From positions 77,284 through 141,283 of the forward strand of contig JAPJBO010000372.1 of assembly GCA_030068145.1 (NCBI GenBank): 64,000 nucleotides of DNA, given 5' to 3'. The notes below the pieces were generated by a model, which saw nothing but the letters and a program-made list of their open reading frames with translations, was not told where the DNA came from and ran no database searches. The number at the start of each line of letters is the position of its first letter. Positions within the stretch are counted from its first letter, which is position 1. The DNA comes from Diplonema papillatum. Its lineage: Eukaryota. Positions 1,817 to 58,629 of the stretch are shown here, piece by piece. The position numbers and the translations under genes are program-made.

Positions 1817-4800
1817 ATGGATCGCCAGGACAAGGTCGAGAAGGTGTTCCGCTTCTTCGATTGCGATGGCGACGGGTTGTGGTCGTTCGAGGAGGCGAGC
1901 GCCGTGCAGCGGGAAACGGAGGGCACGGTGCTGGAAGGCGACCAATGGCTCGCCGTGTGCGACTGGCTGGGCGCCGAGTCGACCGGGCTGACGCTGAAGG
2001 ACGTGATCCGGCTGTACGCGGACAAGTCGTTGGCGAGCATCGACATGGACTGCGAGATCGTCGAAAGGCTGGCGGGCCGGCTCAACTCACCGTTGGTGAC
2101 CCCGGCGTCCCCCGCACTCTCAACAGGCGGTCGCTCCGAGCGCATCGTCAAAGCCTTCTGCTCCGCATTAGACGACGTCCAACGCGTCGAGTCGCACTAC
2201 GCCGGATTCCACTCGACGGGCAACATATCCCCGCTGCGGTGCAGCGCGAAGGAGTCGGGGTTCCACTTAGAAGCCGACAACGTGTCCCACATATCCGTGA
2301 CGTCCCCGTCCGCCCTTTACAACGACGGCGCCCCGTCGCATTTGAACAGCCCGATGTCGAAGCACACGCAGTGGATCGTCGTGCCGTGCGATGACATGAC
2401 GCAGTCGGTCGCGTTTTGGGACTCGAGCACCGGGAACCTGGTCGAATTCTACGCCGCGCGCTCCGAAAAAAAGGGCCGCGGGCTCTTCGTCCGGGTGCAG
2501 GCGAACAACGCGGTCGGCAACGAGAGCGAGACCGAGTTCGGCGAGCCGGTCTTCTCGCTGCAGTCGTCGCCGCCGACGCCGCGCCGCGGTAGCACCGAGT
2601 CGCCGGACTGCCGGTGCCGGCCGGCCCGCGTCCGCCACCTGCAGTACTCCGCCGCCGAGGGGACCCTCCGCGTCTCCAAGAACACGGTTCTCGCGCTTCC
2701 GAAAAAGGTCTCGTCGAACAACGCGCGCCGCTGGTCTACCCACAGCGGGATCGAAGACCAGGACGTGCACCAGCTGTTGTACCGCCTTGCGCTCCTCTCC
2801 GACCGATGCTCCGTCTCCCACAACCTGCCGATCGTCGGCGCCCTCCACGACGAAGTCAACGCACTGCGCAGGAAACTCGCGTGCCTGGAAGCGCAGTGGG
2901 ACACCACCACCGGCGTCCTCCGCAAGATTCAGCACGCCCTCGACAAGGAGCCCGCGAACGGCACCCGCAGAACGTCGTCCGACTCCTCGGAGCAGGGAAC
3001 CGAGGCCCTGTCCCGACGGGGGACCACGTGCGCGAATCTGCAGGAGTACTTGAAGCGGCATATCCTCGCGCAGACCGCCGACTCGTCGGACGACCTGCTG
3101 CACACCGTGCGGAAGCAGGCGGCGGGGAAGCCGGCGGAGATTCCAGCGTGCGATGCGACCCTGCCGCAGGTGCCGCGGACTGCCGAAGGTATGGACGAGC
3201 CGGCCGCTGGGAAGGATGTGTCCTCGTCTTCCGACGCGGGGCCGCCGAGCCGGCGGCAGCTCACCGCGAAGCGGCGTGCCGGCACCGAGGCGATGCTGCA
3301 CCTCGCGTCGAGCCTCGCGAAGCCGCGGCGCGCGGCGTCGCGCGGCCAGAACGAGCCGTTCAGCGACAGCTGCAACACCGACAACGGCGCGCCGCTGTCG
3401 ATGGAGGGCAGCACGCAGCAGCTGCAGCAGCAGCAGCAGCAGCCCCGCGCCAGGGCGAACAGCGAGAAGCTGTACGCGAAGCCGCCGATAGACGGCGAAG
3501 ACGCCACGGCCACCACGTCGGGCGCGGCGTCGCTGCAGTCGCCGTCGTCCTCCCACGGCGGCGCCGGTTCGGGCCGGGGCTGGTCCACTGGGTGCCCGCA
3601 GCGGGCCGTCCGGCGCGCCGCCAGCGACACGCGCATCGGCGGCAACGGGGGGGAAGCGCTGCGGCGCGGCGGCAATGGCGGGCACAAGGGCCCCAGCGCG
3701 CCCGCCGGCGGCGCCGGCGGCGGCGCCAAGCGGTGCAGCTCGGACCGCGGGTTCGTGCTGGGCGGCGGCCCGGGCGGTGCGGCCTGCGCCGGGTGCGCGA
3801 AGCGCGGCGGCGACGCCGCCGGGTTTTGGAACCTCCTGGGTGCCCCGAAGATGCAGCTGCTTGGTGGCAGCGGCGGCGGCGGCTGCAACGGGGTCGCAGA
3901 CTGCGGGCTGGATGGGGAGAAGGGCGAGTCCGAAGTGGAGGAGGGTCAGCAGCAGGCGAAGCTGGGTCGCCGGCTATCCGCCGACGACGCGGCACGGGCG
4001 TTGAAGGTCGCCGTCAACATCGGCAGCTGCTTCGGCGAAGCCGCACCGTCTCCCATCGTCGCGCGCCGGTCGAAGTCGACTGGAACCGCCGCATCGCCCC
4101 CCGCCTCCTCCCCGCCCGCCATCCTGCCCTTATCCGAACTCGTCGAGGACATGCGCGTCTCCCGCCGCCAAACAGCCGACATCACCACACCCACCCCTAC
4201 CCCGACCACGACCCCCAAGCAGCAACTTCCCCTGCAAGCTGCGGGTAACACTCGGTCGCCAGCGGAGGAGCCCTGCGACATTGTCATCAGCGTGACGAGC
4301 AGCGACACCGTTCTTTTCCCGGGGGGCCGCCGTGGCGACAAGCCGCCCTCCCAGGCCGGGAGCAGAGAGCCGGCTGCCTCGGGCGAAGATGCCGGCGTCC
4401 GCCGGGCGTCGCTGTCGATAGGCGGGGCCGTGGCGTCGCTCGCGGGCAGCGAGCACCCGCTGCACACGTCGCCCTCGTCGCAGTCGAAGGCCAGCAGCCG
4501 CTGCTCGGGCGACAGCGACGCGGCGCAGTCGCCGCCGACGCCGGCGGGGCACGTGCGGGGCAGCCCGCGGTACAGCTGCCTGCAGCCGGAGAACCCGAAC
4601 TTGTTTTGCCCCCCGTCCATCAACCTCACCGACAGCGGCCACCCCCGCCCGCACGGCCGGTCGGACTGCAGCAGCAACGACAAGCCGCACTCCAGCCCGG
4701 TCAAAGGGCCGAACTCGCCGTCCGACGGCCCGCCCCTCCACCGCCGGTTTCCCTCCAACGACTTCTCCGACCCGGAGATGCCGTCGGCCAGCGCGTCTCC

Positions 4801-7288
4801 GATCACGAACCACATCCCGTCTCCCAACACCCGCCTGCACACCGCGCTAGACCCGGCGCTGCTGCAGCCGCCCAGCTCGCCCGAGCCGCACAAACCCCTG
4901 CACTTTCGGACCGACTCGCGGGAGGACGCTTTCGGCGTTCCGTGCCGGAAGACGCTGTCGCACTCCGACGCGTTTTCGCTGTCCGACACGCGGAGCAAAG
5001 CCACATTCCTTGCCTTCGGCCGCCGGCACTCGCGGGATTCGGTGAACGAGAGCCTCTTCCGCCCCCCCGGGTGCTCCTTCGCCTCGCACGCGGACGACCA
5101 AGGGAGCCGGTCGCCGCTGAACGACTCGCGGAAGAACCGCCGGTCGACCAGCGTGTACACCACGCCGGAAGTCTTCTGCCGGAAGCATTCAAGGGACAGC
5201 GCTTCGGACAACCTTTTCCGGCGGCCGGGGCTCGACGAGCAGGGCCTGCGCTCGCTCAACGAGTCGGGGCGCACCGACAACTCGGTTTCGACGATGAACG
5301 AAGGGTACGGCAGGCGGCCGTCGCGGGATAGCGTCAACAGCCATTCGCTTTTCCACCCTCCCGACGCGAGCTCGTTCTCCCTCCACGACTCCGGGAAGGC
5401 TTCGGGGGTGGGGAGTGTCTTCGGTCGGAGGCTGTCGCGGGACAGCGCGCACGACGATCGCCCGAAGGGGTGGACTACCAGGCGGCAGCCGCAGCAGCAG
5501 CAGCACCACCACCGGCGCGAAAAAACCCAGCGGCAGCAGCAGCAGCAAGAGGAGCAGCGCGCTGGTTTGCAGATAAAGCCGCCCCCGGCGCAGAAGGCGC
5601 TCAGCAACAGCAACCGCAGCGCGAGCGACGCGGCTGGCACCGCGAGCGACCTGGTCTTCACGCAGGTCAACTCTCCGGTGTGCGCCGCCGCCTCGTCCGA
5701 CGCCCGCTCGTTCGACGCCAAGACCAGCAGCAACAACCCCATCAACGTCAGCACCACCCGCAGCAGCAGCAGCAGCAACATCGTCAGCAATACTGACAGC
5801 AACATCAACAACAACAACAACAACACCAACAACAACGAAAGCGGCAGCAGCGTCAGCAACATCATCGGCAACAACGACGGCGGCGGCAGCAGCGCCAGCA
5901 AGCCGCCGGCCCCGTCGCGGCACGCCCTCGCCGCAGAAGCCCTGCTGCGGGAGACGGCGTCCGACGACGACGTGTCGGGGCGGCTGGGCGGCAGCGAGGT
6001 CTTCCTGTCCTCGCTGCCCAGCGTCGACGCGGGGCTCGGCTTTTTTTTCGCGCAAGGCCCCCCGGAGACCGGACGGGGCGGCGGCGGGTACCCCCGGCTG
6101 TCCGTCGATCGGGCGTCGACCCCTAGCTCGTCTCCTTCGTCTTCTTCCTCTTCGAGCAGCTCGGAGGCGTCGCTTTACGACACGCTGGCAGCGGCGTCGC
6201 ATTTAGAGCCGACCCTCTCGAGCGATAGCCACCACGGCCACAACTTCACGATCGACGACAAGGAGAGGACGTTGCCGGTGTGCCTCCACGTGTTCCCGGT
6301 CGTTGATCGCCCGCCGTGTTCAGACAGCAATTTGTCGCCGGTGCTGAGCCCGCACGACGGCAACAGGCGGCGTTCGTCGGCGACCGACGACGCACTGGAA
6401 GCGCCGAAAATCGACCCGTTCAGCCCGTCGTACACGATGATCACCGCCCTCACGAGCCCCTTCGACAAGCACGCCCTTGACCACGCGCCCGCCCACGACA
6501 TGGAGCGAGACGCGTATCTCGGCAGCCCGGCCCAGGCCAACAGCCCGCAGCGCAACGGCACCAGCTTCGCCTCCCGCCCGGCGGCGCGGACTGCCACCGC
6601 GGCCAGCGCCGCGGCGCATCTCCCGTCGCTGCTGCAGGCCGCCGCGCTGGCGACGCACCCGCTGCCTGAAGCTGCCGATTCGACGTCGAGCGAGACGCTG
6701 GGCGGCGGCGGCTCCCGGCGCAGCTCGGCTGGACCAAGCCAGCCCGGTGACTGCGGGGTGGAGCCGTCGGCGAAGGACGAGCTTTCCGACCCGGACGCCT
6801 GCAAACCGGGCGTCGATCACTTCGCGAAGCTTCGCGCGCGGGGGTGGCAGAGCTCGGGGCAGGCGCCGGAGGGCGGCGCCGGCGACGGGCGGAAGCGGAA
6901 CTCGCTGGCCGTCGTGGCACCGCACGCGGCCGGCGAAGAGTGCAAGCTCGGCCGCAACGGGGCCGGCGGCGAGGGCGCGAAGGGCTGCAAGGGGGCCTGC
7001 CGCCGCAGCAGGGTCACGTGCGGTCCGTACGCCGTCGCCTTCGGGCCCTGCTCCCCGCCGACCGACGGCGGCGGCGGCGGCGGCGAAGCGACGCCGGTGC
7101 CCATGCGGGTGAGCATCGGGTTGCCCGCCCACCAGCGGGCCCCAGTGCAGCTCAAAGTCGACACGGGACACGGCCCGCTGCTGTTCTCCCTGCGCGTTCT
7201 GCCGCCGCGGAAGTTCCGGGTGAAGCGGACCACCAAGCGCAAGCCCGCGCAACCGCAGCCCGAGGAGGAGGCGGAACCGGTGGGATAG
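1817..7288 (+). CDS. Very large (1823 aa) low-complexity protein with an N-terminal EF-hand; an internal block carries four RRxSRDS repeats
   Basis: There is a true ATG at 1817 in an A-rich context (aaaataagaATGG). The ORF runs 5.4 kb without stops and has strong third-position G/C bias (tcg, ccg, gcg, acg, aag, gag, cag). A canonical EF-hand loop D-C-D-G-D-G-L-W-S-F-E-E lies at about 1838-1909. Poly-Q, poly-A, poly-G, poly-S and poly-N tracts are present. Four copies of [FY]GRR[HPL]SRDS...LF[RH]PPG occur at about 5014, 5175, 5305 and 5419. Undetected introns cannot be excluded. Confidence 0.8.
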   Translation: MDRQDKVEKVFRFFDCDGDGLWSFEEASAVQRETEGTVLEGDQWLAVCDWLGAESTGLTLKDVIRLYADKSLASIDMDCEIVERLAGRLNSPLVTPASPALSTGGRSERIVKAFCSALDDVQRVESHYAGFHSTGNISPLRCSAKESGFHLEADNVSHISVTSPSALYNDGAPSHLNSPMSKHTQWIVVPCDDMTQSVAFWDSSTGNLVEFYAARSEKKGRGLFVRVQANNAVGNESETEFGEPVFSLQSSPPTPRRGSTESPDCRCRPARVRHLQYSAAEGTLRVSKNTVLALPKKVSSNNARRWSTHSGIEDQDVHQLLYRLALLSDRCSVSHNLPIVGALHDEVNALRRKLACLEAQWDTTTGVLRKIQHALDKEPANGTRRTSSDSSEQGTEALSRRGTTCANLQEYLKRHILAQTADSSDDLLHTVRKQAAGKPAEIPACDATLPQVPRTAEGMDEPAAGKDVSSSSDAGPPSRRQLTAKRRAGTEAMLHLASSLAKPRRAASRGQNEPFSDSCNTDNGAPLSMEGSTQQLQQQQQQPRARANSEKLYAKPPIDGEDATATTSGAASLQSPSSSHGGAGSGRGWSTGCPQRAVRRAASDTRIGGNGGEALRRGGNGGHKGPSAPAGGAGGGAKRCSSDRGFVLGGGPGGAACAGCAKRGGDAAGFWNLLGAPKMQLLGGSGGGGCNGVADCGLDGEKGESEVEEGQQQAKLGRRLSADDAARALKVAVNIGSCFGEAAPSPIVARRSKSTGTAASPPASSPPAILPLSELVEDMRVSRRQTADITTPTPTPTTTPKQQLPLQAAGNTRSPAEEPCDIVISVTSSDTVLFPGGRRGDKPPSQAGSREPAASGEDAGVRRASLSIGGAVASLAGSEHPLHTSPSSQSKASSRCSGDSDAAQSPPTPAGHVRGSPRYSCLQPENPNLFCPPSINLTDSGHPRPHGRSDCSSNDKPHSSPVKGPNSPSDGPPLHRRFPSNDFSDPEMPSASASPITNHIPSPNTRLHTALDPALLQPPSSPEPHKPLHFRTDSREDAFGVPCRKTLSHSDAFSLSDTRSKATFLAFGRRHSRDSVNESLFRPPGCSFASHADDQGSRSPLNDSRKNRRSTSVYTTPEVFCRKHSRDSASDNLFRRPGLDEQGLRSLNESGRTDNSVSTMNEGYGRRPSRDSVNSHSLFHPPDASSFSLHDSGKASGVGSVFGRRLSRDSAHDDRPKGWTTRRQPQQQQHHHRREKTQRQQQQQEEQRAGLQIKPPPAQKALSNSNRSASDAAGTASDLVFTQVNSPVCAAASSDARSFDAKTSSNNPINVSTTRSSSSSNIVSNTDSNINNNNNNTNNNESGSSVSNIIGNNDGGGSSASKPPAPSRHALAAEALLRETASDDDVSGRLGGSEVFLSSLPSVDAGLGFFFAQGPPETGRGGGGYPRLSVDRASTPSSSPSSSSSSSSSEASLYDTLAAASHLEPTLSSDSHHGHNFTIDDKERTLPVCLHVFPVVDRPPCSDSNLSPVLSPHDGNRRRSSATDDALEAPKIDPFSPSYTMITALTSPFDKHALDHAPAHDMERDAYLGSPAQANSPQRNGTSFASRPAARTATAASAAAHLPSLLQAAALATHPLPEAADSTSSETLGGGGSRRSSAGPSQPGDCGVEPSAKDELSDPDACKPGVDHFAKLRARGWQSSGQAPEGGAGDGRKRNSLAVVAPHAAGEECKLGRNGAGGEGAKGCKGACRRSRVTCGPYAVAFGPCSPPTDGGGGGGEATPVPMRVSIGLPAHQRAPVQLKVDTGHGPLLFSLRVLPPRKFRVKRTTKRKPAQPQPEEEAEPVG

Positions 7289-28800: not shown

Positions 28801-29571
28801 CTTCGTTCGATCAGTCATGGCGACAAATACACTTCTTTTGACGCCCACAGCCACCGACGGCTGCCCTGGCGGCCTCGGTTTGGTTAACACCCTGCTTCGG
28901 AATAAATTAGCAGGCATTGGTCTCCACCTGTGTTCTGAGGCGTACTTTTTCGTTGTCGACAGCGAACAAGTGACAGGATACGAAAGAAAACTACGCATAT
29001 CTTTCCGACACGTCAAATTGCTCTCTCTCTCTCTCCGTTGAGTGCGGGTCGCTTGAGTTTGCACCGGACAAGAGCCCACCGCCAGCCGCAAGCATGCAAA
29101 ACCTGCGTTCAAAGTTAGCTCGTACCACGCTGTGGCTGACCGTCTCCACGGGCTTGCGTCCAGCCAAACCCCAAGGAACGCCCCCTTGATGCTTTGGTTT
29201 CACTAAATCGGTAGCCACTTGACGACCCGTAGGCGGAATCCACCTCCGCCCCTACACACATCCCCCCCCAAAAAAAAGAAGGAAAAGTATCAAAAAGTAA
29301 AGCAAAAAGACAGTTGCTTTTAATTATTTCACTATAATAACTCTCAGTCTAGTTATGGTGCGAAGAATCCATCAAGATAACCCAACCACTAGAAGCAAAG
29401 CAGCTGCGAGGCTGCATGTATGGTCGCTCGCTGGAGGCAGGCTACTGGATTCCGTTGGTCTGTTGTCCCGTATTGCTGTCGCCAGCCCGGTCTAAGCCCC
29501 GCCCACGTTCCCTGTCAAGTGAACAACTCTTGGCAAATCTACTTGTCTAAGTTAGGGAAGAGCCATCACAA

Positions 29572-29643
29572 GTAAGCTGGCTTGGAGCAGCCAAGCGTTC
29601 CTCGGAACGCTTGGCTGCTCCAAGCCAGCTTACTTGTGGGAAC
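29572..29643. repeat. Perfect 72-bp palindrome (35-bp arms around a central TC)
   Basis: CACAAGTAAGCTGGCTTGGAGCAGCCAAGCGTTCC tc GGAACGCTTGGCTGCTCCAAGCCAGCTTACTTGTG; checked base by base. Confidence 0.9.
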
Positions 29644-39335: not shown

Positions 39336-41605
39336 GCCGTGTGGGAAAGAAGAAAAAAGGCGCTAGAAGAACAGGCAGGTCACGGGAGGGTGGGCACCCA
39401 ACCCCGCCGGACCTGGTTGTTGTAGCGGCGGAAACAAAGCTGGTGATGATGTCTTTTCGCGCGAGAGACCGTACGCCTCGAGTGCAACCAGCAGGGAAGA
39501 AATTGTTGTTCTCGCCCAGCGGGCACGGAAATCCTGGTGGTGGGTGTTTTATCATGCTGTGGAATTTCCTCGATAATCGCAAGAATCCGGAAACTCTAGA
39601 TCTCCGGAATATCAAGCGAGCTTTGCTCTAAAATAAATAAAGAAACGTTGACCTTCTTCACTGGTCACCCCCCCTCACGTCCCCACGCACTCCTCGCTCC
39701 GTTTGAACTTCTTATCTCTTGGCTGCGCTCAGCCCGCTAATAGGTGCTACGCGTCACGAGGCATTCAATAGAACACCCAGCTTCGGTTTAATCTCATCGT
39801 TTCGATCCCTGCTTTGGGATTTTTTCCGCCCGGGAAAACCGAGAACATAGGCCTGGTGTCGGCAGCGCTTCACCGGTGACTGCTAGTTCTTTTACCTATT
39901 CCTTTTACTGCCAACATCGGGAATCGGAATATACGCGTGTCAACTGCTTTGTCAGTCAAAAGTGACAAGTGTTGTCACCAGCGCAACACCTGTCACTTTT
40001 CAAACCCTTGTGTTGTTGAAAGGCCAAGGATGCTTAACTTTACTTTAACAGTAGTGCCATCCTTGCCAACGGTTGGCGGCAGGTCATCCACGAGTGAGTT
40101 GACATGCGAAAATACTTCTTTGTGATTTTGTGAAAATGCTCGTTCTTCAGGGCTGGCGGGTTCTTTATAATTGCTTTTGACGTTGTGGCACACCTGTGCG
40201 GCAAGAAGTCCATGCAGGGTGTCCTACGAAAACTTCCCCCCTTTTCTTTTTCCACCCGCTCCCCCCTGTCTCTTCTCTCTTCTTTCCACCGTCTTTCCCT
40301 ATCCGCGTGTTGCCACCTTCTTTTTGACCTCACAATCTTCTTCGACTGCATTCTTGTCCTCGTGTTCTTCTTTCTGTTGGCTTTTTCGCTTTTATCGTCG
40401 CTGGTACCACTGACACGGCGTGAACGCACGGCTTACTCCGGCCACACCAGAAAACAGGTTAGCGATCACTGCCGCTGGACGGCTCCTGCAGTTGCCAGTT
40501 TGCCGAAGCTAGTGGAGGTGGGAGAAAAAATTACCACAGGGACAACTGGCTCGTGGCAGCCAAGCGTTCATAGCGACGTTGCTTTTTTTGATCTCGGCTC
40601 TTCCTAACGTAGACAAGCAGAATTGTCTACGGTTGGATTGTTCACCCACTAACAGGGAACGTGAGCTGGTAAGACCCGAGCAATAGCACCCGTTGTTTTC
40701 TTCCGCTTATTCACCGCCCCACGCGCTCTCTCGAGAAACGAAAAGGATCGCCGTCTTTTCCTTGCCGAGAGGCAAGGACCGTGGCAAGCGTCCCGTCACC
40801 ACCTAGTGCTCTATAGGAGGACAGGGAGGCTCCCCATCGCTGTCTTTCATTGCACGCCCCGCGGGCGGCCCGGAGTCCATCTCCTTCAGGTACACCGCTA
40901 TTAAGACGTTTCCAACCAGTCACCAACTCACTTGCTCTTCGTGGAAGCGTGCGGGCCGTACCACTGTTTCTCCCAATATATATACCGATCAAAGACAGCG
41001 ACGATCAACGGGCACACCCACTTTTTTTGGTGTCGCTGCGCACGCGGCTCGTCAGCGCCTGTCGTGTCACCCCCTTCGCGCGCTTCCCGTTCAGCGGTGT
41101 CTGTAAGCTAGTAGCACAGCTCGTAGTCTACAGCGCGGCGACACTGCTACCCATGACACACGAAACAGTCGAAGCGAATTAGACACACGAAAGGAACAGA
41201 GGAACACGGCGACTAAGGACGGCGTTGTTGGCTTGGCTAGATGGCCAACACGACAATAGGGGGGATCCATCGAGCCCACAGGAGAATCTCCGACGCCCAG
41301 TGAAGGACTCAACTGTGGCATACACGACTGCTCCACAAACATGAAAACCGACGACGAAAAACCGTATTTTGTTAGTTTGTGCGCCCTTCCTTCAAACCTG
41401 CTTTGTTCGTCTACCGGGAGTGAGGATAGTACACTGCCATCGATCGGGGTTTTGACAAGTTGCATTTGTTAGGCACACCAAAAAAGAAAGCACACCCACG
41501 AAATCCGTTTGCATGTCCCGAACACCCGGAGCTTGTTCCTGAAAAGAGCAACGGGAGATAAAGTGACATCCCTCGGAGGAAGGTGCGGGGGTCTGGCTCG
41601 AGACG

Positions 41606-48554: not shown

Positions 48555-49589
48555 TATTGTACCCCTTCCGTCTCAAAAAGGCAGATTTAATCCAGTTGGC
48601 TGGCCAACCTCGTATTTCACTCATTCTGCGAAAAAGTGATCAGAACATCGTTGTTGTGTTTGTGACAGGGCACTGGCCAGACGATCAGTTCTACAGCACC
48701 CAGTGGGATACCGAATGGACTGCACGGGTTTTATACTGATTCACTCAGATCAACGCGGTCACAGTAAAATAGTCCTTCAAATAATAGCGCAAGTCAGGAC
48801 CTTCGGCCATGGACTCAGGCAGGTCGCAGGGCTCAAAGGCCAGGCCTGTAAAACTTCCCTCCCGTACAATTGCGGATACTTGAGTACAACCAATGCTGTA
48901 AAGGAAATCTTCCAGCATGTCTCGAAGCGACCATTCACTCTTGGCCATCGTAGGAGGTCAATACATTTGGTCACTTTGTGAACGAGTGTTCATAGCTGAA
49001 ACCAGCGCCACGGTTCCAGCAACGACCCTTGTCAGCCGCAGCCAGACCAGGGATGAAGGTCAGACGAGAGTGCCGATCGCAAATGTCATGAATCCTCAGA
49101 TTTATAGTGGGGGATTGATTAACCCTCTGGAGAGACACAGCACCCATGGGTTTCCTTATTCCATCTTCTGTCCATCACCGGTCGAGCCGTGCTCAGGAAG
49201 TGCACACGCGAGCGGTAACTATGATCCTGCCAGGTGCTAGCGGCAGATCTCCATGAATGAATGACTGAATGCATGAATGAAAAACAAGCACCGTTCCGTC
49301 TGGAACAGGTCAGCGCCAGATTTCATTTTTTTGTTTTTGAACGGTGTCATGGGGGGGGCCTTCACGAGGCGACTCTGTTGACCGCACCTTAATTGAGCTG
49401 CGGTCGCCAATCCCCCAACCGCCAGCATTATGTGCTTGACGCGACGCGGAACGAAGTGCTGCTTAGCAGCCAATGGCCTGTGATGGCTGAGTGGAGTGCA
49501 CACCGGCTGGGCTGGCATTAGCGCTTGCCTCTTGACTACCAATTCTAATTAATTTTGGATCCCCGAGGGCTATTTATTCCCGAGAGAAT

Positions 49590-49720
49590 AGCTATTTATT
49601 ACCGGAAAATAAAAAGCCTTTTTGTCCCGAGGAATCGACTTTTTCTCTCGACTCGCCCGGAGGGCGAGTCGAGAGAAAAAGTCGATTCCGAGGGACAAAA
49701 AGGCTTGTATTTTCCGGTTA
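49590..49720. repeat. Long near-perfect palindrome (about 60-bp arms, GGAGG centre)
   Basis: CCGGAAAATAAAAAGCCTTTTTGTCCCGAGGAATCGACTTTTTCTCTCGACTCGCCCGG agg GCGAGTCGAGAGAAAAAGTCGATTCCGAGGGACAAAAAGGCTTGTATTTTCCGG. Confidence 0.85.
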
Positions 49721-49871
49721 TACGTTGGTTTATTACCGGCTGGGAATCAGTTTTTTCCCGGCCGGGGCTCTCGTGTCCACTGGTCTCATGGTGGCTTCAT
49801 CACTCTCGGCGGTGGCAGTCTCGGTATATCTCTCAGAACGCAGAAGACACGGTAAGAACGGAGTCACGGAG

Positions 49872-50270
49872 TCATGCTCTGATGATCGAAAGAATCTTCG
49901 AGACGTGATCCTTGCTGTAGGTTTTCAGGCGCTGCACTAACCGGGGGAACTTCTTCGCCGGGTTTTCGCCGTAGAGTGTCGTGTGCTTTGTTGTCAGCAT
50001 ACTGAAGTACGACCAGATTGTCGTTGCTGCGAGCCCTCTTTCGTTGCGGAGTGCCTTGATGTACCCTGAGTACTGAGTTTCGTTCGGCTTTCTCGTGGTT
50101 GTGACAGACCTCGGGTAGTTGTGGTGTTCGCGGATGTACGCCAGGAAGTCTTTCCAGACATCCGTGTAGCGCTGCTTCGACTTCTGCGGCATCAGCGAAT
50201 CGGCACTGTCTTCGTCGGATGAAGTCTCCTCGGACTCTTCGCGCTTTCTCTTCGGCCCTTTCGCCGGCAT
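49872..50270 (-). pseudogene. Fragment paralogous to the N-terminal region of the tyrosine-recombinase protein at 52044-52745
   Basis: MPAKGPKRKREESEETSSDEDS...YTDVWKDFLAYIREHHNY...TTIWSYFSMLTTKH aligns with MPGKKRKAPSASSESSDSESSDS...YDKTYDDFVKFCRIRTRT...TLWSGFSMLKSCIQ at about 30-35% identity. No catalytic portion follows. Confidence 0.5.
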
Positions 50271-51094
50271 TTTCTTTCCCGGATTGATTTCTGGTTCTTT
50301 TCCTGTCTCGTTGTGAGGTTTTAGTGCGTGTTTGGGATGATTTCTGTCTCATAGTCCCCTCTTTGCGCACAGCACGGCCTCCCGGGAAAATAAGGATTTA
50401 CCGGGAAAATAAGGATTTTGCGGGAAAATAAGGCTTTATTTTGTCCCGCTTTTTCTTAACTTTTGTGTGGCAGCCGGGAAAAAAAATTCCCAGCCGGTAA
50501 TAAAAGTTGTTTTCTGGCACGAGTAGTTTTCCGGTGTGCCACGAGTGGCCGTAGGCCTGCGAAATGACGCAGAAAGAGGCAAGAACAAGTCTAGATGCCT
50601 GTGTGGCACGGGTCAGTTTTGAGAGTGAATAGCAGAAAACCGTGCCACCGATGATGTAGACAACTGCTGGCTGGGAGCGGCTCCTTTTTGGACCCCACGA
50701 ACATCACCTGCCCCCACTGTTGGCTTTCTTGCCAAAGTCTCGCAATTTTGGAAACGGCACAAGGCTTTTGATCAATGTACTGTTGGACGAGTCTTGGGGC
50801 TTGACCAGCCGCAAAAACTCCGAAGTGCTGCTACAGACCGGCCTGAATCGTTGTGTTTCCAAAAAGTGTGCGCACCCCTCGAGTTCAGAAAAGTCGCGCT
50901 CTGCGATAGAAAAGCCATCTTATTCACTCGAAAAAGTTGTTTTCTGGCACTCGTAGTTTTCCGGTGTGCCACTCGTGGTGGCACTATTCACTCTCAAAAA
51001 CAAGCCCTGCCACGGCCTAATGCCAGCAATAATTGCCTACTTTGCTCTTTTGTCCACTGAAATCCTGTGTTCTTGTGCTGCATTATCCTGGAAA

Positions 51095-51365
51095 ACAGCA
51101 TTGGCCTGGAGTGTAGAAAAGTAGGTCTGAAGTGTAGAAAAGTAGGTCCAGAGTGTAGAAAAGTAGCACCCCGAGAGTGCAGAAAAGTCGCGTGCCAGGT
51201 AGAAAAAGACTTTTTTGTCACTGCACTCTCGATTTCGTCACTCCTTAATTTTCCATTTCGTAACTCCAGACCTTCATTTCGTCGCTCCAGACGTTCATTT
51301 CGTAACTCCGGAAATCCATTTCGTCACTCCGGAATTCCATTTGGTCACTCCGGATTTTCTTTTCA
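51095..51365. repeat. Two arrays of 21-bp tandem repeats (AGTGTAGAAAAGTAGGTC.GA x4 at 51095-51190; CATTTCGT.ACTCCGGA..TC x6 at 51240-51365) flanking the left inverted repeat of the YR element
   Basis: Direct observation. ORF 51067-51627 (+) is an artefact of these arrays. Confidence 0.85.
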
Positions 51366-52848
51366 CATGAAGACGAAAAAATGGTCAGGATGCACAAAAA
51401 CGAGGACAAAACGCAAGAAAATGGGCTCGAAACACGAGACAATGATGGAATTAACGCAGAATGAAAGAAAGATTGTTGGTAAATTTAGGTCATTTCCGAC
51501 GGTTGGCCTTTGCCTGCAAAGCGTCAGACCCGATCTGAATCACGCTATTCTCCGCAACAATGGAGATGTAGATAATGTTCTGGGGTGTCGTTGGAAAGGC
51601 AAATGGTGTGGGCAGGCTAGGCAATGAGGCCTGCAGGGGGGAAGGCAACGAGTTTTCTGAAGGTTCCAGGTTAGGTAAGGTCGTTTGCTCAGATGCAGGC
51701 ATCAGATCAGAAGCCAGAGACTGTAACATGCTCTTACTTCGATCGAGGTACTGTTGTGCTGATGACAGGGATGACCAGCCGAAGAAGCGCATAGGGAGAC
51801 CCCCCCTTGTCGGCGAGGTGTGTGGCAGCACTTCTCCTCAGGCTGTGACTCGTGTAAGTTTCTGGGTTGCTAAGTTTCAGTTTTCCCGCAGCAATGACTG
51901 ACACATTGCGGCAGCTGTTGATTCCCCAACGTTGTGCTTTAAAGCCTGAAGCCTCTCCACGGGCCTTGTAGAGAATCGCGTGCCACAGAAAAGAGCAGGC
52001 AGTCAGTTCATTGGGTAGCTTGCTCAGGTACAACCTCAGAGCGTCAAGCGGTGCACCAGAAGGAACCAAAAATATACTGCTCTTTTTTTGGCCCCCTCTG
52101 CTTGCACGGCTGGTAGGAAATCCAACATCCGAGTTCCTCCATAGTCAAGGAAGCCTTGGCGATGCTGTACCCTTCTTCGAGTCTGAGTCCGCCGTAATAG
52201 ACGACTGTGAAGAACGCCCGGCAGATGGCTGCTTGCTCCGAAACATCTTCTGCGTCCTTCAAGTACTGCTGTACCTGGGCGGAGGTGAAAGTAGATGCTT
52301 TTTTTGTCGGCCGACCCTCTTCTTCCTGGCGTTTCAGAAACAGGGTAACCTTCTTGTAATCAGCAGCAGTAGCAAACCGGCTCTGGATACAGCTCTTCAA
52401 CATGCTGAATCCGGACCACAGCGTCTTGTACTTGAATCCCCGATTGTCAGCCAGGTCGTTGAGGTAGAGCAAAATGTCATCTTCACGCGGGGTTCTTGTC
52501 CGGATCCTGCAGAACTTCACGAAATCGTCGTATGTCTTGTCGTAGATAGCTTTGCTCTTCTTTGGCTGAAGTCCCTGTGCAATCATCTGTGCAGCATCCT
52601 TTTTGCAATCAGACAACGATGATGCGCTGTCTGATGACTCGCTGTCTGAGCTTTCCGAGCTCGCAGAAGGCGCTTTCCTCTTCTTTCCCGGCATTTCTTT
52701 GGATGTTCCCTGCACCCGTTGACCCTCCTGGCGTGGTTTTGACACTTTTCATAACTCCCTGAAAACACATTTTCACTCCGTGTTTCGTCACTTTGGTCAT
52801 TTTCGCACCCCTTCGGAGTGACTTCATTGAGAGTGCAGTGACAAAAAT
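51213..52848 (-). mobile_element. Crypton/DIRS-like tyrosine-recombinase element, about 1.64 kb, bounded by imperfect inverted repeats of about 33 bp, with subterminal 21-bp repeats; the coding region is frameshifted
   Basis: Left IR 51213-51245 TTTTTTGTCACTGCACTCTCGATTTCGTCACTCC; right IR 52815-52848 GGAGTGACTTCATTGAGAGTGCAGTGACAAAAA, about 27 of 33 matching as reverse complements. The YR ORFs lie between them. Confidence 0.55.
51734..52745 (-). pseudogene. Tyrosine recombinase (phage-integrase / Crypton-DIRS type), disrupted by a frameshift near 52050 and lacking a clear C-terminal Tyr segment
   Basis: ORF 52044-52745 has an NLS-like N-terminus and a box-I-like TVVYYGGLRLEEGYSIAKASL with the conserved Arg. 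ORF 51734-52069, in another frame, has a box-II-like YTSHSLRRSAATHLADKGG (H-x-L-R-R...A-T-H-L...G; compare DIRS/Crypton HSLRRGGAT). The ORF ends soon after, so it is probably not functional. Confidence 0.6.
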
Positions 52849-52859
52849 ACCCTTATCAC

Positions 52860-52950
52860 CCATTAATGACGAAAAATCACTCTCGAATCCAAATTTTTGG
52901 CTCTCGACCCTTCGGGTCTCGAGCCAAAAATTTGGGTTCTCGAGTGATTT
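52860..52950. repeat. Near-perfect palindrome (about 40-bp arms) between the YR element and the hAT element
   Basis: CGAAAAATCACTCTCGAATCCAAATTTTTGGCTCTCGACCC ttc GGGTCTCGAGCCAAAAATTTGGGTTCTCGAGTGATTTTTTTCG. Confidence 0.85.
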
Positions 52951-55900
52951 TTTTCGCCATTATTAACACGGAATGAAAACGATAGTTAAAAAAAAAGATC
53001 ATTCTCAAAAGTGAAATATCATCGTTTTTTATCGTTTTGAAAAAACGATCGTTTATTTTTCTTCAGTTTTTCCTGTTGAAATTAGTCAGAAGTGTCCATT
53101 TATTGTGTAGTAGTTGGCTTCGGTGGGCGGGGATTCAGCTACCTCGTAGCCTTTCATGTCGGAATCGGGTGAGCTGTTGCTCCAGTATTGACAGCAATCT
53201 GCCAAGCATCCCCGACACGCTGATGAATCTCTAGCAGCCCACTAAGCCCCAGTGACTATGGCATCTGTGCCGCCGTAATGCTCGTCGTAAATGTCACTTT
53301 CCTGGGGTTCATAGAATCCGGCCTTGATTTTGCCTTTGTGCTTTTGGGTTACATCCTTGTTTGCCGCATGAATTGTTATGACAGTCTTACTTGCCGCACT
53401 TAGTCGTTCTCTTCCAGCAAGGACCCTCCCACAAAGGCTAAAAAATGAATCACACTCTGTTGCTACTGGGGAAAGAGCAAGGATTGCCAAGACGTATTTG
53501 CGCAGTGTCGGATTTTCGTGGCACCGCCACCATGCTTCAGCTCTTGTTTTCGGTGAGAGGTTTTTGGCTTCTTCGATGTATGCATCGTGTTCGTCATCTG
53601 TGATGGGCAGCTTCAATAGCATTCTCATTTCACTTGCTGTGAGAAGGCTCTTTGTTGCACGCATTAGCTTGGCAGAGGCCGGGTTCAGCTGCCTCATGGC
53701 CTTCCACTGGTAATAGGAACACACTTCGGAAGCGGGTGAGTTACTGCCCCAGTACGTGTTGACAGCAGCTTCTAACAGCCCACTGAGCGGGTTCGTACCC
53801 TTCTCGTGCATCAGCTGTGCAGTGCTTGCCAGTTCGGAGAGATCACCAAACACCTCGGTACACATCATAGAGCGTTTGTGTCCGTCTGCATATTTGATCA
53901 ACAGACCTCGCATAGGCTCCGTGGCTTCTATCATCTGATCAAGTACCTTCTCAATCCCTTCTTTCTTGTGATCACGCAAGATGACGCAAAGATCAATGAG
54001 CGACTTCGGAGCTGCCTTGCTGCTGCGGAGTTCACTGGCGGCAAAGCAATACAATGCATTCACTCGAGCTCGCAAGTGCTTGTAAATATCCAACCTGTGC
54101 CGGTACTTCGTATCGGACAACAGCGGACACCGCTGAGGTGGTGCAGCTTCGGCAGATCGCTGGTCACTTGCAATGGTCTTGTGCAGTTTTGAAATGCAGT
54201 CCGAGAGTTCTTCTACATTGCTCGCTGCATTGACCGCAGTGAGGTCCTGCGCCTTTGCCATGTTGCACACACGAGTTTTGTATTCGTTGAGGATGTAATC
54301 CGCTTCTGCCCTCGTCATTGCGCCAAAGCTCTTAAGCTCGCTCACCAGTTCATCGAGGCCGCTTACCTTCGTCTGAGAGACCAAGACACGCTGTACCTCT
54401 ACCCACCGTGCAGCACGAAAGCCGTTCAGCTCCCCGAAGAGGAGATTGTCGATCAAACTCGCAACTCGTAGAGCTGGGTCGCCCGACTCTTTTGCAAAGG
54501 TTTCAAATTTCTCCCCCATATTGTGAATAAGATGAGCCACGCAGGAAACCAGTAGAGCTCCGAATTTTTCTGCAATTAAACGCGACGCCGCTCCGTCTGC
54601 TCCTCCCCGATCAGCGCGAACAAATGTCGGTATCACGATGCCCAGCTTGCTAATATGAACCTCAATAGCCTTAGTCAGCTCATCGCTGTCCCAAGACTTG
54701 CCATCTTCTCGGACAAGTGGCGGCAACGCAAACGTCCCGCTTAGGCATGATGCCATGAGCGCCTTAGCTGGCTGTGCACCCAACTTACCACCATCAAAGG
54801 CCAAAGACCACAAAGCGCCATTGAGCTTGCTTTTGATTGTCTCCATCGCAGCTGTTGTCAGCGCCTTTTCCCTCTTCTGCACGATGCCTCCCACGTCAAC
54901 GTCGCTTGCGGGAATCCTCATCCCCCTCAGCACCTGCAGGATGCTGCTTAGTGTTGTGGGGGAGACCCCGGTGTAGAGACAAGCTTCAGTGCAGCGCTCC
55001 TCGAAGAGGCTGCTCTCAGAGAAGAATGGCAGTAGAGACGCCGTGCTCTTTTTCTCATCCTTTTCCGCCTTCATGCGCTTGATGTGCCTTGGTCCAAGGT
55101 GGGTAAGGTAGTCGCTTTTTTGCGTCCCAGGATGCCACACCCTCTTGCAGTACACGCACCCAATCACTTTCTGCTCACCTTCCCATTCAAGGATTAAAGA
55201 AGCGTGACCCTCCCAACCAGCCGTCTCCTTCAGCGCAACCACTCTCAAGTCCGGGAAGCTAGTGGCGTAGCCTAAAACCTTTGCTGACAGCTCCTCGAGG
55301 TGCTTCTTCTTCTCTTTCGGCTTGCTCTGCTCGTTGCTGTCTGTTCTGGTTGCCTTGCGTCTGGACTCGTCCTCAACACTTGCTGCTAGCTTGCGCTTCT
55401 CAGCTGTGGCTTCTCCTGCAGGACGCCCTCGGCCGCGCTCCTGTGCTGTGGCTTGTGGCAATTCCTGACCAAGCCGACGAATCTCTGCTATTCCCAGCTT
55501 CTTGACCAATTCATCCTTCGAGCCCTTCCAGGTTTTTGTAATGACACCTTCCTCCTCCCCCTGTTCTCGCACTTTCTTCTTCGTCAACTTTGCGTACTTC
55601 TTGATGATCGACTTGAGTTTTGACTCCTCCACCTGAGACAATGATTCCTGCTTCGACTCCGGCGAACTGTCTGATGAATCGTCCGACGAGGTTGAACTGC
55701 TGTCGCATGATAGAGGCTTCTTCAATGACATTTCTGATGCCCTCCCTCGACCCCGTTCTCTGTTCGATCATGGTGTCATAGCGTCACAGTAGCTGTGACG
55801 TGATACACATCAAACATCGGTCTACTTGACACTTCGCTCTCGACGTTATCAGCACCATGAAGACCTAGGAGGCAGCCCAGTATGGCAGCCCACGGTCGCT

Positions 55901-56329: not shown

Positions 56330-56874
<545 letters not shown>

Positions 56875-57065
56875 TTGCAGTTTACTGAGGGAACTGGAGC
56901 AAGACGCATGGCTAGACGAGCACGACCACCTCGAATCGACACCAGAAGAATTCGGGGTGGGGCTGGCTTCGACGACTAGTAATATCCCGGTAAATGGTAG
57001 CACTCCTGAACAAGCCTGAACCAACAGGATCAAAGAATGTCAGTCACACCTTCCCGATTCTTTTT

Positions 57066-57230
57066 CCCACCCTCCATCCCCCGCGTGACGTCGTCCCAGC
57101 GGCGATCATAGCTTGCCTCATGGTCGGTGTTCTTCCCCTTCGTTTGTTTGTAAGTATCCGCTTTGGTTTCACCCTTTGTTTTCAGATGGAGTTGCACGAG
57201 CCGACCGGAGGAAGGGGTCAGCACAAGCCC
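57066..57230. repeat. Segment of about 160 bp, conserved with window positions 1-160, lying between the two (TAC)n arrays
   Basis: CCCTCCATCCCCCGCGTGACGTCGTCCC.GCGGCGATCATAGCTTGCCTCATGGTCGGTGTTC..CCCTTCGTTTGTTT is 95% identical over the first roughly 90 bp, then about 70% identical for some 70 bp more. Copy 2 contains GTAAGTATCC...CCCTTTGTTTTCAG|ATGGAG, which looks like a very short intron. Confidence 0.85.
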
Positions 57231-57278
57231 CAGGAAGCCAAGCCAGTGCGAGAGGCCAGAAGACGCCAGCTCCAATTC

Positions 57279-58629
<1,351 letters not shown>

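Follow-up and report, generated by a model that had tools for sequence, protein, structure and literature searches.

A probable family of small mobile elements with a Cre-like tyrosine recombinase as its sole product, represented by two tail-to-tail members in Diplonema papillatum

The described systems closest to the locus reported here are the Cryptons, which encode only a tyrosine recombinase (YR) and have been defined, in the literature up to 2026, as elements devoid of terminal inverted repeats (TIRs) or long repeats, their ends consisting of 4-6-bp direct repeats or none (PMC3212892, PMC13465315), and the YR retroelements of Euglenozoa, VIPER and TATE, which possess split direct repeats, not inverted repeats (IRs) (PMC6681497). 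Trypanosomatids have been reported to be without any class II elements. The genome of Diplonema papillatum comprises 52% of repeats and about 3600 scattered 28S fragments, its transposons were not rigorously curated, and its description makes no mention of Cryptons or YR DNA transposons (PMC10161547). In the literature searched, we found no description of a YR DNA transposon of diplonemids or kinetoplastids, or of such elements in Euglenozoa, and the family presented here appears to be undescribed there. In a 64-kb stretch of the D. papillatum genome (the window), positions 49587-52990 harbor two elements, designated A and B, lying tail to tail with 706 bp between them; 6 of the 19 IRs of the window (at least 24 nt, arms within 3 kb) are concentrated in these 3.4 kb. 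We propose that A and B are probably two members of a small mobile family (about 1.7 kb when complete), of which a Cre-like YR is the sole product and which would operate through circle formation and inversion. The features of element A are as follows.

51211-52990, minus strand: element A, whole unit of about 1.78 kb, skeleton and gene both on the minus strand ('sense' isomer), with ends matched to the contig starts and ends of relatives and to points of divergence.
51490-52745, minus strand: YR gene, with a conserved start (MPGKKRK) at 52694 and two +1 frameshifts, in a C7 run (51800-51806) and a T7 run (52083-52089).
51212-51244, unstranded: distal IR, the outer end of which (...CAGTGACAAAAAA) is element end 2, with the half-site-like GTGACAAAA; it aligns with IR_R of contigs L001, L006 and L003.
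52815-52847, unstranded: proximal IR, aligned with IR_L of L002, L006 and L003.
51232-51354, minus strand: subterminal 21-bp array, 5.8 copies, of which the gene-strand unit GGAATTCCGGAGTGACGAAAT repeats the inner IR motif GGAGTGAC.
52838-52860, minus strand: intact lox-like site, GGTGATAA-GGGTAT-TTTTGTCAC, composed of two inverted half-sites and a 6-bp spacer, which links the base of the hairpin to the outer IR end.
52862-52968, minus strand: hairpin, with core arms 52872-52910 and 52914-52952, two CGAG/CGAG 2x2 internal loops (tandem G.A) and a 3-nt apex.
52969-52990, minus strand: end-1 motif, TTTAACTATCGTTTTCATTCCG, a diverged form of AATA[AG]CTATTTATTACC placed by alignment.

The coding sequence of A is split over three minus-strand frames (52745 to 51490). 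By profile search, its product is a tyrosine recombinase: the stitched 419-amino-acid (aa) protein matches the Pfam family PF00589 (Phage_integrase) with E=1.5e-9, above the curated cut-off of 27.1 bits, as does its relative P0002 with E=2.6e-14. This outcome agrees with the original prediction, made from the letters of the DNA and a list of its open reading frames (ORFs), which had recognized a YR box I (GGLRLEE) and box II (HSLRRSAATHLADKG), both present in the frameshifted ORFs, and had suggested a HMMER search with the phage-integrase profile. It had missed the third frame, which holds FFGW...QQYLD with the tryptophan and the catalytic tyrosine. The stitched protein also weakly matches a SAM-like N-terminal domain, and the family gives weak XerC, XerD and XerA matches; no match to DUF3504 or GCR1_C was obtained at E<=1 in the domain profile search. 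When the family profile was compared with the PDB, the best relative of solved structure was Cre (E about 1e-6), the alignment equating LRxEE with R173, HSxR with H289/R292, GW with W315 and Y with Y324. The motifs GGLR(L/T)EE, YQP(A/C)KQRG, HSLRRSAAT, FFGW and QQYLD are invariant across the close family, so that the catalytic set R...K...H-x-x-R...H/W...Y is present, with the K assigned from its position only. Neither the ORF of A nor that of B turned up in an exact look-up in the protein collection. A C-terminal tail, (V/I)xY(F/I)SNI(A/G)EGAxIQIGxD, is conserved in P0001-P0004, P0024-P0027 and A (window about 51493-51560), where it follows a variable proline-rich linker; a faint echo of it, NNxNCTINI, is seen in insect relatives.

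The gene of A is possibly intact, because its only two frameshifts fall in 7-base homopolymers and the deletion of one base from each of the C7 and T7 runs restores a single 417-aa ORF. These frameshifts may be long-read indel errors in an intact copy, or else two slippage mutations. As in all related units, a single ORF lies between the ends of A and there is no second gene, and no reverse transcriptase (RT) domain was found in the neighboring ORFs tested. Since the 1.78-kb unit contains no other gene, RT and RNase H are not part of A, the coding capacity of which is therefore Crypton-like, in line with what had been predicted from the absence of linked RT and RNase H.

A word-indexed protein search retrieved no more than four close intact homologues, P0001-P0004, with lengths of 389-426 aa and identities of 38-56%, each from a Logan contig of 1.3-2.0 kb; these were followed by insect YR-domain proteins (fireflies) at about 30% identity. 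A full HMMER scan of 1.84 billion representatives yielded 4504 relatives at E<=1e-3, adding the full-length P0024-P0027 and a second clade (P0041, P0054). Short insect proteins (P0013-P0021) that might have passed for N-terminal-only genes were rejected as irrelevant fragments of insect YR genes. The contigs of nine relatives were examined for their non-coding layout, and the conserved architecture described below is common to about 10 lineages: A and B of the window, P0002 (L001/L002), P0003 (L006), P0004 (L003/L004), P0026 (L017/L018), P0173 (L019/L020), P0041 (L007-L016), P0174 (L021) and P0172 (L022). A hairpin pattern matching three lineages found nothing in the JGI metagenome contigs or the IMG/VR viral contigs, and back-translated YR peptides gave 94 and 46 pattern matches there, respectively, none of which was confirmed; therefore, Logan/ENA assemblies and this window are the only places in which the family is visible.

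Taken on the strand that gives the hairpin loops as CGAG, the conserved skeleton runs in the order end motif, hairpin, lox-like site, proximal IR, gene segment and distal IR. End 1 is the motif AATAGCTATTTATTACC, made up of AATAGCTATT, itself a 10-bp palindrome, plus the half-site TATTACCGG (that is, AATA[AG]CTATT and TATTACC(GG)). The possibility that AATAGCTATTTATTACC is a spliced leader was rejected, the motif being encoded contiguously in the genome. The hairpins have 40-70-bp arms, a 3-nt apex and one to three identical CGAG/CGAG 2x2 internal loops giving tandem G.A mismatches. The lox-like site consists of two inverted half-sites of roughly 9 bp, with a consensus near GGTAATAAA, around a 6-bp spacer, and runs into the proximal IR; it reads GGTGATAA-GATAAT-TTTATTTCAC in L002, CCGGTAATA-CGTAAT-TTTATTCCG in L019 and, on the reverse complement, CCGGTAATA-CGTTAT-TTTATTACC in L007. 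The gene segment carries, in several lineages, a 19-30-bp tandem array built on the inner IR motif, and the distal IR terminates in a half-site (...GGTAATAAA, ...GTGAAATAAAAT or ...GTGACAAAAAA). The IRs are 33-54 bp long across lineages.

In comparisons with relatives, the similarity of A to homologous elements extends from 52977 to 51211. Its IRs, anticipated as imperfect repeats of about 33 bp around the coding region, are indeed 33 nt long and 88% complementary. The 21-bp array of A lies within the element, 3' of the gene, at a position equivalent to that of the analogous 20-30-bp arrays of L001, L006, L003, L017 and L019, and the 5' side has just one or two loose copies of the unit. Thus, of the two arrays once thought to bracket the gene, that at 51232-51354 stands, and the symmetric bracketing does not, as the array at 51103-51189 differs in its unit and lies beyond the element end. 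A palindrome at 52872-52952 (39-nt arms, 87%), immediately outside the right IR and previously overlooked, is the counterpart of a palindrome in B.

Whether such repeats belong to the element or to the surrounding DNA was a question that the original prediction raised, with a check on the co-occurrence of IRs and YR copies elsewhere as its proposed answer. We found that the IRs recur at intact homologues in about 10 lineages, with arrays and palindrome in the same order. Because intact homologues keep these ordered features, and because the ends of copies coincide with the outer IR ends, we assign the IRs to the element and favor the alternative already raised, that of a distinct type of YR element. 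Furthermore, each lineage has a motif common to its own hairpin, IRs and array (GAGTGAC in A, CCGGAAAATAA in B and GGGATATAAAGTGA in L019), indicating that these three parts evolve together. By sequence comparison, the head is the best-conserved part of the element: that of A is 83% identical to that of L002 over 182 bp, as compared with 68% for the best coding stretch. The hairpin of A (52862-52968) and positions 18-140 of L002 are about 91% identical, with two compensatory pair changes, and the proteins are 52% identical. This disparity between hairpin and recombinase might reflect a very strong constraint or an exchange of hairpin modules between lineages. The idea that the palindrome lies outside the element was rejected, since relatives have it in a collinear position and with up to 91% conservation, and contigs open at its outer motif.

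Element B comprises the following features.

49587-50504, plus strand: element B, whole unit of about 0.92 kb, with a plus-strand skeleton and a minus-strand ORF ('antisense' isomer), internally deleted and collinear with the right ends of L007 and L021.
49587-49605, plus strand: end-1 motif, AATAGCTATTTATTACCGG, the sole match in the window, with 0.02 expected by chance.
49600-49720, plus strand: hairpin, with 59-nt arms (86% complementary), one CGAG/CGAG loop and a 3-nt centre (GGA apex).
49714-49739, plus strand: intact lox-like site, CCGGTTATA-CGTTGG-TTTATTACCGG (the right half-site also given as TTTATTACC).
49729-49763, unstranded: proximal IR, one member of the inverted-repeat pair.
49872-50270, minus strand: truncated YR ORF of 132 aa, consisting of the SAM-like/core-binding N-terminal domain only.
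50382-50438, plus strand: 19-bp array, three copies of the unit CCGGGAAAATAAGGATTTA, which has the motif CCGG(G)AAAATAA in common with the hairpin and IR of B.
50468-50504, unstranded: distal IR, the outer end of which (...CCGGTAATAAA) is element end 2.

The 49872-50270 ORF had been taken for a paralogous N-terminal fragment next to a 130-bp perfect palindrome. The homology holds (over 70 aa the ORF is 36% identical to the N-terminus of A, with an E value of about 1e-6 to 3e-8), and the gene is truncated, since the ORF ends just past the N-terminal domain. However, B has its own IRs (49729-49763 and 50468-50504) and 19-bp array, which had been missed, and is better described as a separate, internally deleted element that would represent a sister lineage. 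The best full-length matches of its ORF are P0174 (43%), P0041 (39%) and P0173 (36%), as compared with at most 32% for the first clade, which places it, as judged from its sequence, in the P0041/P0054 clade. The palindrome is not perfect: its arms, only 59 nt long, are 86% complementary about the 3-nt centre. The end motif has a further, degenerate copy (22 bp) beside B at 49566-49586, and 17 nt of the B end motif also open contigs L002, L003 and L019, and occur at position 5 of L004. Lox-like sites nearly identical to that of B are found in L007 and L022 (GGTAATAAAATAACGTATTACCGG) and in L019. The view that B has an aberrant architecture was rejected, as the same antisense arrangement in L007, L021 and L022 makes it a regular isomer.

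The mobility of the family is documented by the ten contigs L007-L016, from several ENA and Logan metagenome assemblies, all of which encode an identical P0041 protein; a count of the contigs with this identical protein gave 11. Seven of the ten are 99.9-100% identical from TTTTATTACCGAACC... onward; together with L007, they display at least six unrelated left flanks. All of them cross the distal IR and the lox-like site, and the long enough ones reach the start of the hairpin. The P0041 terminus TTTTATTACCG..., homologous to end 2 of B, is joined to at least six different flanks, and from this terminus onward the copies are 100% identical. Similarly, two P0026 copies diverge immediately past the outer end of their distal IR, the one equivalent to 51212-51244 in A. 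We regard the family as mobile because identical P0041 ends meet at least six flanks and break exactly at the outer IR end; the P0041 element would have been recently active, in an apparently widespread host. At the other end, L002, L003 and L019 start at AATA[AG]CTATTTATTACC; in addition, L001 and L020 stop at the distal half-site, ...AATAAAA(T), and L021 opens at the terminal half-site TTTTTTTACCG. We ascribe these contig breaks to element ends because a multi-copy element behaves in this way in de Bruijn assembly. Comparisons of the flanks of relatives revealed no convincing target-site duplication, short direct repeats or overlap sequence common to the two ends.

The gap between the tails of A and B (50505-51210, unstranded) contains a 47-nt direct repeat (50502-50548 and 50932-50978), an IR (50603-50632 and 50984-51013) ending in GAGTGAATAG and the 21-bp array at 51103-51189. 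No YR-related ORF was found there, and its repeats are probably the debris of further family members. Small TGGCAC...GTGCCA hairpins and half-site-like ends also occur in this gap, the array of which has the unit GAGTGTAGAAAAGTA. As another observation on grouping, positions 1-1930 of L007 hold a second YR element, the gene of which is disrupted (272-871 and 889-1281) and the tail of which carries a 25-bp array; it stands in tandem directly upstream of the P0041 element. The clustering of A, B and further remnants in the window, and of the L007 pair, could plausibly arise by insertion beside resident copies.

The gene is oriented sense to the skeleton in A, L001/L002, L003, L006, L017/L018 and L019/L020, and antisense to it in B, L007-L016, L021 and L022. 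In both isomers the intact lox-like site and the end motif remain with the hairpin, which in antisense isomers is downstream of the gene, its loops reading CTCG/CTCG on the gene strand. Both orientations occur in one protein clade, which includes the sense P0173 (49% identical to P0041) and the antisense P0041 and P0174; hence, orientation is no ancient trait of the lineages. Most simply, the gene segment would invert through recombination of the IRs with each other. Inversion by Flp produces the two forms (A and B) of the yeast 2-micron plasmid.

Joining end 2 to end 1 in silico generates one continuous imperfect palindrome (IR, broken site, hairpin, intact site, IR), with a predicted DNA folding energy of -68 to -118 kcal/mol in four elements. 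The joint of the B lineage is a perfect 28-bp palindrome, CCGGTAATAAATAG abutting CTATTTATTACCGG, and the joined-end site mimics the site found intact in L007 and in B itself. From this continuous palindrome we infer a circular form with the joint as its attachment site. We propose that the recombinase would bind the half-sites, and that the joining of the two ends in a circle would restore a palindromic core site (in the B lineage, CCGGTAATAAATAG next to CTATTTATTACCGG) within a continuous palindrome of about 250 bp. Integration and excision would occur by crossover at the joined site. Recombination between the two IRs would flip the gene segment in a Flp-like manner, which would explain the sense gene of A and the antisense gene of B, and new copies would insert next to resident ones, thereby building clusters.

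The following points weigh against this proposal. First, A is frameshifted as assembled and B is truncated, neither being demonstrably active. Second, the ends of A and B were placed by homology, from the one copy of each in the window. Third, the relatives are known from short contigs (1.3-3.2 kb), and de Bruijn assembly at palindromes can create artefacts, of which the difference between L017 and L018 at the hairpin apex may be an example. Fourth, arrays are absent from some lineages, and that of B is on the other side of the gene. Fifth, the spacer of the broken site comes to anything between 6 and 10 bp, according to where the half-sites are delimited, and the flanks of the two ends share no overlap. 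Sixth, the two isomers come from different lineages, never from one same element. Finally, circular junctions, empty target sites and excision footprints were not seen, and symmetry is the basis on which the circle, the crossover point and the inversion were deduced.

Of the competing explanations, the one that survives best, although we consider it unlikely, holds that A, B and their relatives are integrated copies of 2-micron-type circular episomes, in which the YR mainly inverts across the IRs, for copy-number amplification or as a switch, the chromosomal copies being by-products. A YR gene flanked by IRs with lox/FRT-like sites, the existence of both gene orientations, unit-length contigs that break exactly at the ends and joined ends that form a perfect or near-perfect palindrome are all as this explanation would have them. 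However, there are no replication or partition genes and no contig of the relatives closes on itself; furthermore, the window copies are chromosomal, and the flanks of the P0041 element, at least six of them chromosomal-looking, imply repeated integration.

We give little weight to the explanation that the hairpin, folded as a single strand or cruciform, is the real recombination substrate, as in integron attC sites and CTX-phage dif mimics, its mismatches marking the reactive strand and elements accreting like cassettes. The palindromes do vary in sequence and keep their length, 3-nt apex and identical CGAG/CGAG loops, with compensatory changes, the half-sites form the base of the stem and the elements cluster. 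Yet the hairpin has ordinary duplex lox-like sites on its flanks, with 6-bp spacers, and these would suffice in principle, the CGAG loops can also be read as a one-directional duplex motif on both arms (seven times in L019), and a single-stranded stage is hypothetical. A model of protelomerase-like hairpin telomeres received low weight, the protein being compact and Cre-like and ordinary duplex sites being present.

It is highly improbable that A and B are ordinary Cryptons whose IRs, arrays and palindromes are unrelated repeats. Such a coincidence is invited by a genome made up of 52% of repeats (PMC10161547), by the YR-only coding capacity of Cryptons (PMC3212892) and by nearest named relatives that are insect YR-domain genes; it is already contradicted by the same feature order at intact homologues from other samples in about 10 lineages, by the element-specific motifs repeated in hairpin, IR and array, by copy ends that are IR ends, and by a head that is better conserved than the gene. 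An origin from decayed DIRS/VIPER/TATE-type retrotransposons, with loss of the RT and retention of YR and inverted terminal repeats, is very unlikely as well, since, in spite of the repeats of DIRS1, the VIPER and TATE elements that Euglenozoa carry (PMC6681497) and the TATE-like ORFs annotated in this genome (PMC10161547), complete 1.6-2.0-kb units with an intact YR and both ends leave no room for RT or RNase H in many lineages, the neighboring ORFs tested lack an RT domain, and VIPER and TATE have split direct repeats rather than IRs.

We therefore retain the proposal of a small mobile family with a Cre-like YR and a circle/inversion mechanism. The wider claim that it forms a superfamily-level group of eukaryotic YR DNA transposons or episomes, separate from Cryptons and the first class II YR elements to be reported from Euglenozoa, with a lox-like site, Flp-like flipping, a hairpin active in recombination or replication and an integron/dif-like accretion of arrays, is put forward tentatively, as a possibility that is more doubtful than not. 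Crypton-type elements have never been studied mechanistically, partly because of their ill-defined ends. Here the ends, half-sites, spacers and conserved hairpin are explicit, so that binding, cleavage, excision and inversion assays can be designed directly. A compact recombinase-plus-site module from a eukaryote may be of interest to genome engineers, and the family should be useful for annotating the 52%-repeat genome of a model marine protist.

Elsewhere, the window has sparse ORFs, no tRNAs and one eukaryotic large-subunit (LSU) rRNA fragment, an isolated 154-nt piece at 40541-40694 (120 bits), which fits the roughly 3600 scattered 28S pieces. On the plus strand at 1817-7288, an 1823-aa ORF is exactly KAJ9455581.1 (DIPPA_33973) of D. 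papillatum; it lies in a block of 65-70% GC and lacks Pfam domains, and many long ORFs of other frames overlap it. Another ORF, of 829 aa (53242-55731, minus strand), ends 250 bp from the hairpin end of A; it shows a weak match to the hAT C-terminal dimerisation domain (E=0.13), no NCBIfam match and, by eye, a CxxC...H...H BED-like motif, and may be a hAT-type or domesticated transposase. At 56330-58629, some 758 repeats of ACT form a 2.3-kb (ACT)n microsatellite, which accounts for the GC content (0.39) and GC skew (-0.57) observed locally. A perfect palindrome at 29567-29638 (35-nt arms, 2-nt centre) is unrelated in sequence to the YR-element hairpins.

Compared with known systems, the family resembles DIRS1 in encoding a YR, and DIRS1 for its part has inverted terminal repeats as well as an internal stretch complementary to its ends; the family differs from DIRS1, VIPER and TATE in having no RT, RNase H, gag or split direct repeats and in its units of under 2 kb. 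As it has neither RT nor split direct repeats, it is not a DIRS, VIPER or TATE element. Like Tn916/CTnDOT-type elements and fungal Starships, some of which have TIRs, it combines a YR with imperfect inverted ends and a circle joint that would be the integration site. However, those elements span 10-500 kb with cargo, the Starship recombinase is of the DUF3435 type, and none of them has the module of a hairpin plus a double site.

With integron attC sites, the family shares imperfect palindromes beside a YR, a conservation of shape over sequence, fixed symmetry-breaking mismatches and side-by-side units; the left-end hairpin of minute virus of mice, with its symmetry-breaking mismatch bubble, is another precedent. 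It departs from integrons in its eukaryotic host, in that each unit encodes its own recombinase and in the additional presence of canonical duplex sites, a single-stranded stage being hypothetical here. The catalytic R, H-x-x-R, W and Y that align with Cre, and the inverted half-sites around a 6-bp spacer, relate it to the Cre/loxP and Flp/FRT systems, and the YR gene lying between IRs, in a segment found in both orientations (here in different lineages), relates it to the 2-micron plasmid. In contrast to these systems, the elements are chromosomal and multi-copy, have varied flanks and carry no replication or partition functions, their IRs measure tens and not hundreds of bp, and a hairpin stands between two sites.

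The likeness to Cryptons (Goodwin 2003; Kojima and Jurka 2011, PMC3212892), especially the YR-only groups of insects and other animals, lies in the YR as sole protein, a presumed circular DNA route, the existence of non-autonomous deletion derivatives, and nearest named proteins that are insect YR-domain proteins, about 30% identical. The Diplonema family differs from them by its 33-54-bp IRs, hairpin, lox-like sites and occasional arrays, by its much smaller size (about 1.7 kb) and by its lack of introns. Because its IRs are TIR-like and no signal was found of DUF3504 or GCR1_C, signatures of clades A and F among the Crypton clades F, S, A and I, we do not file it among the Cryptons; together, these comparisons argue for a distinct type of YR element rather than a classical Crypton.

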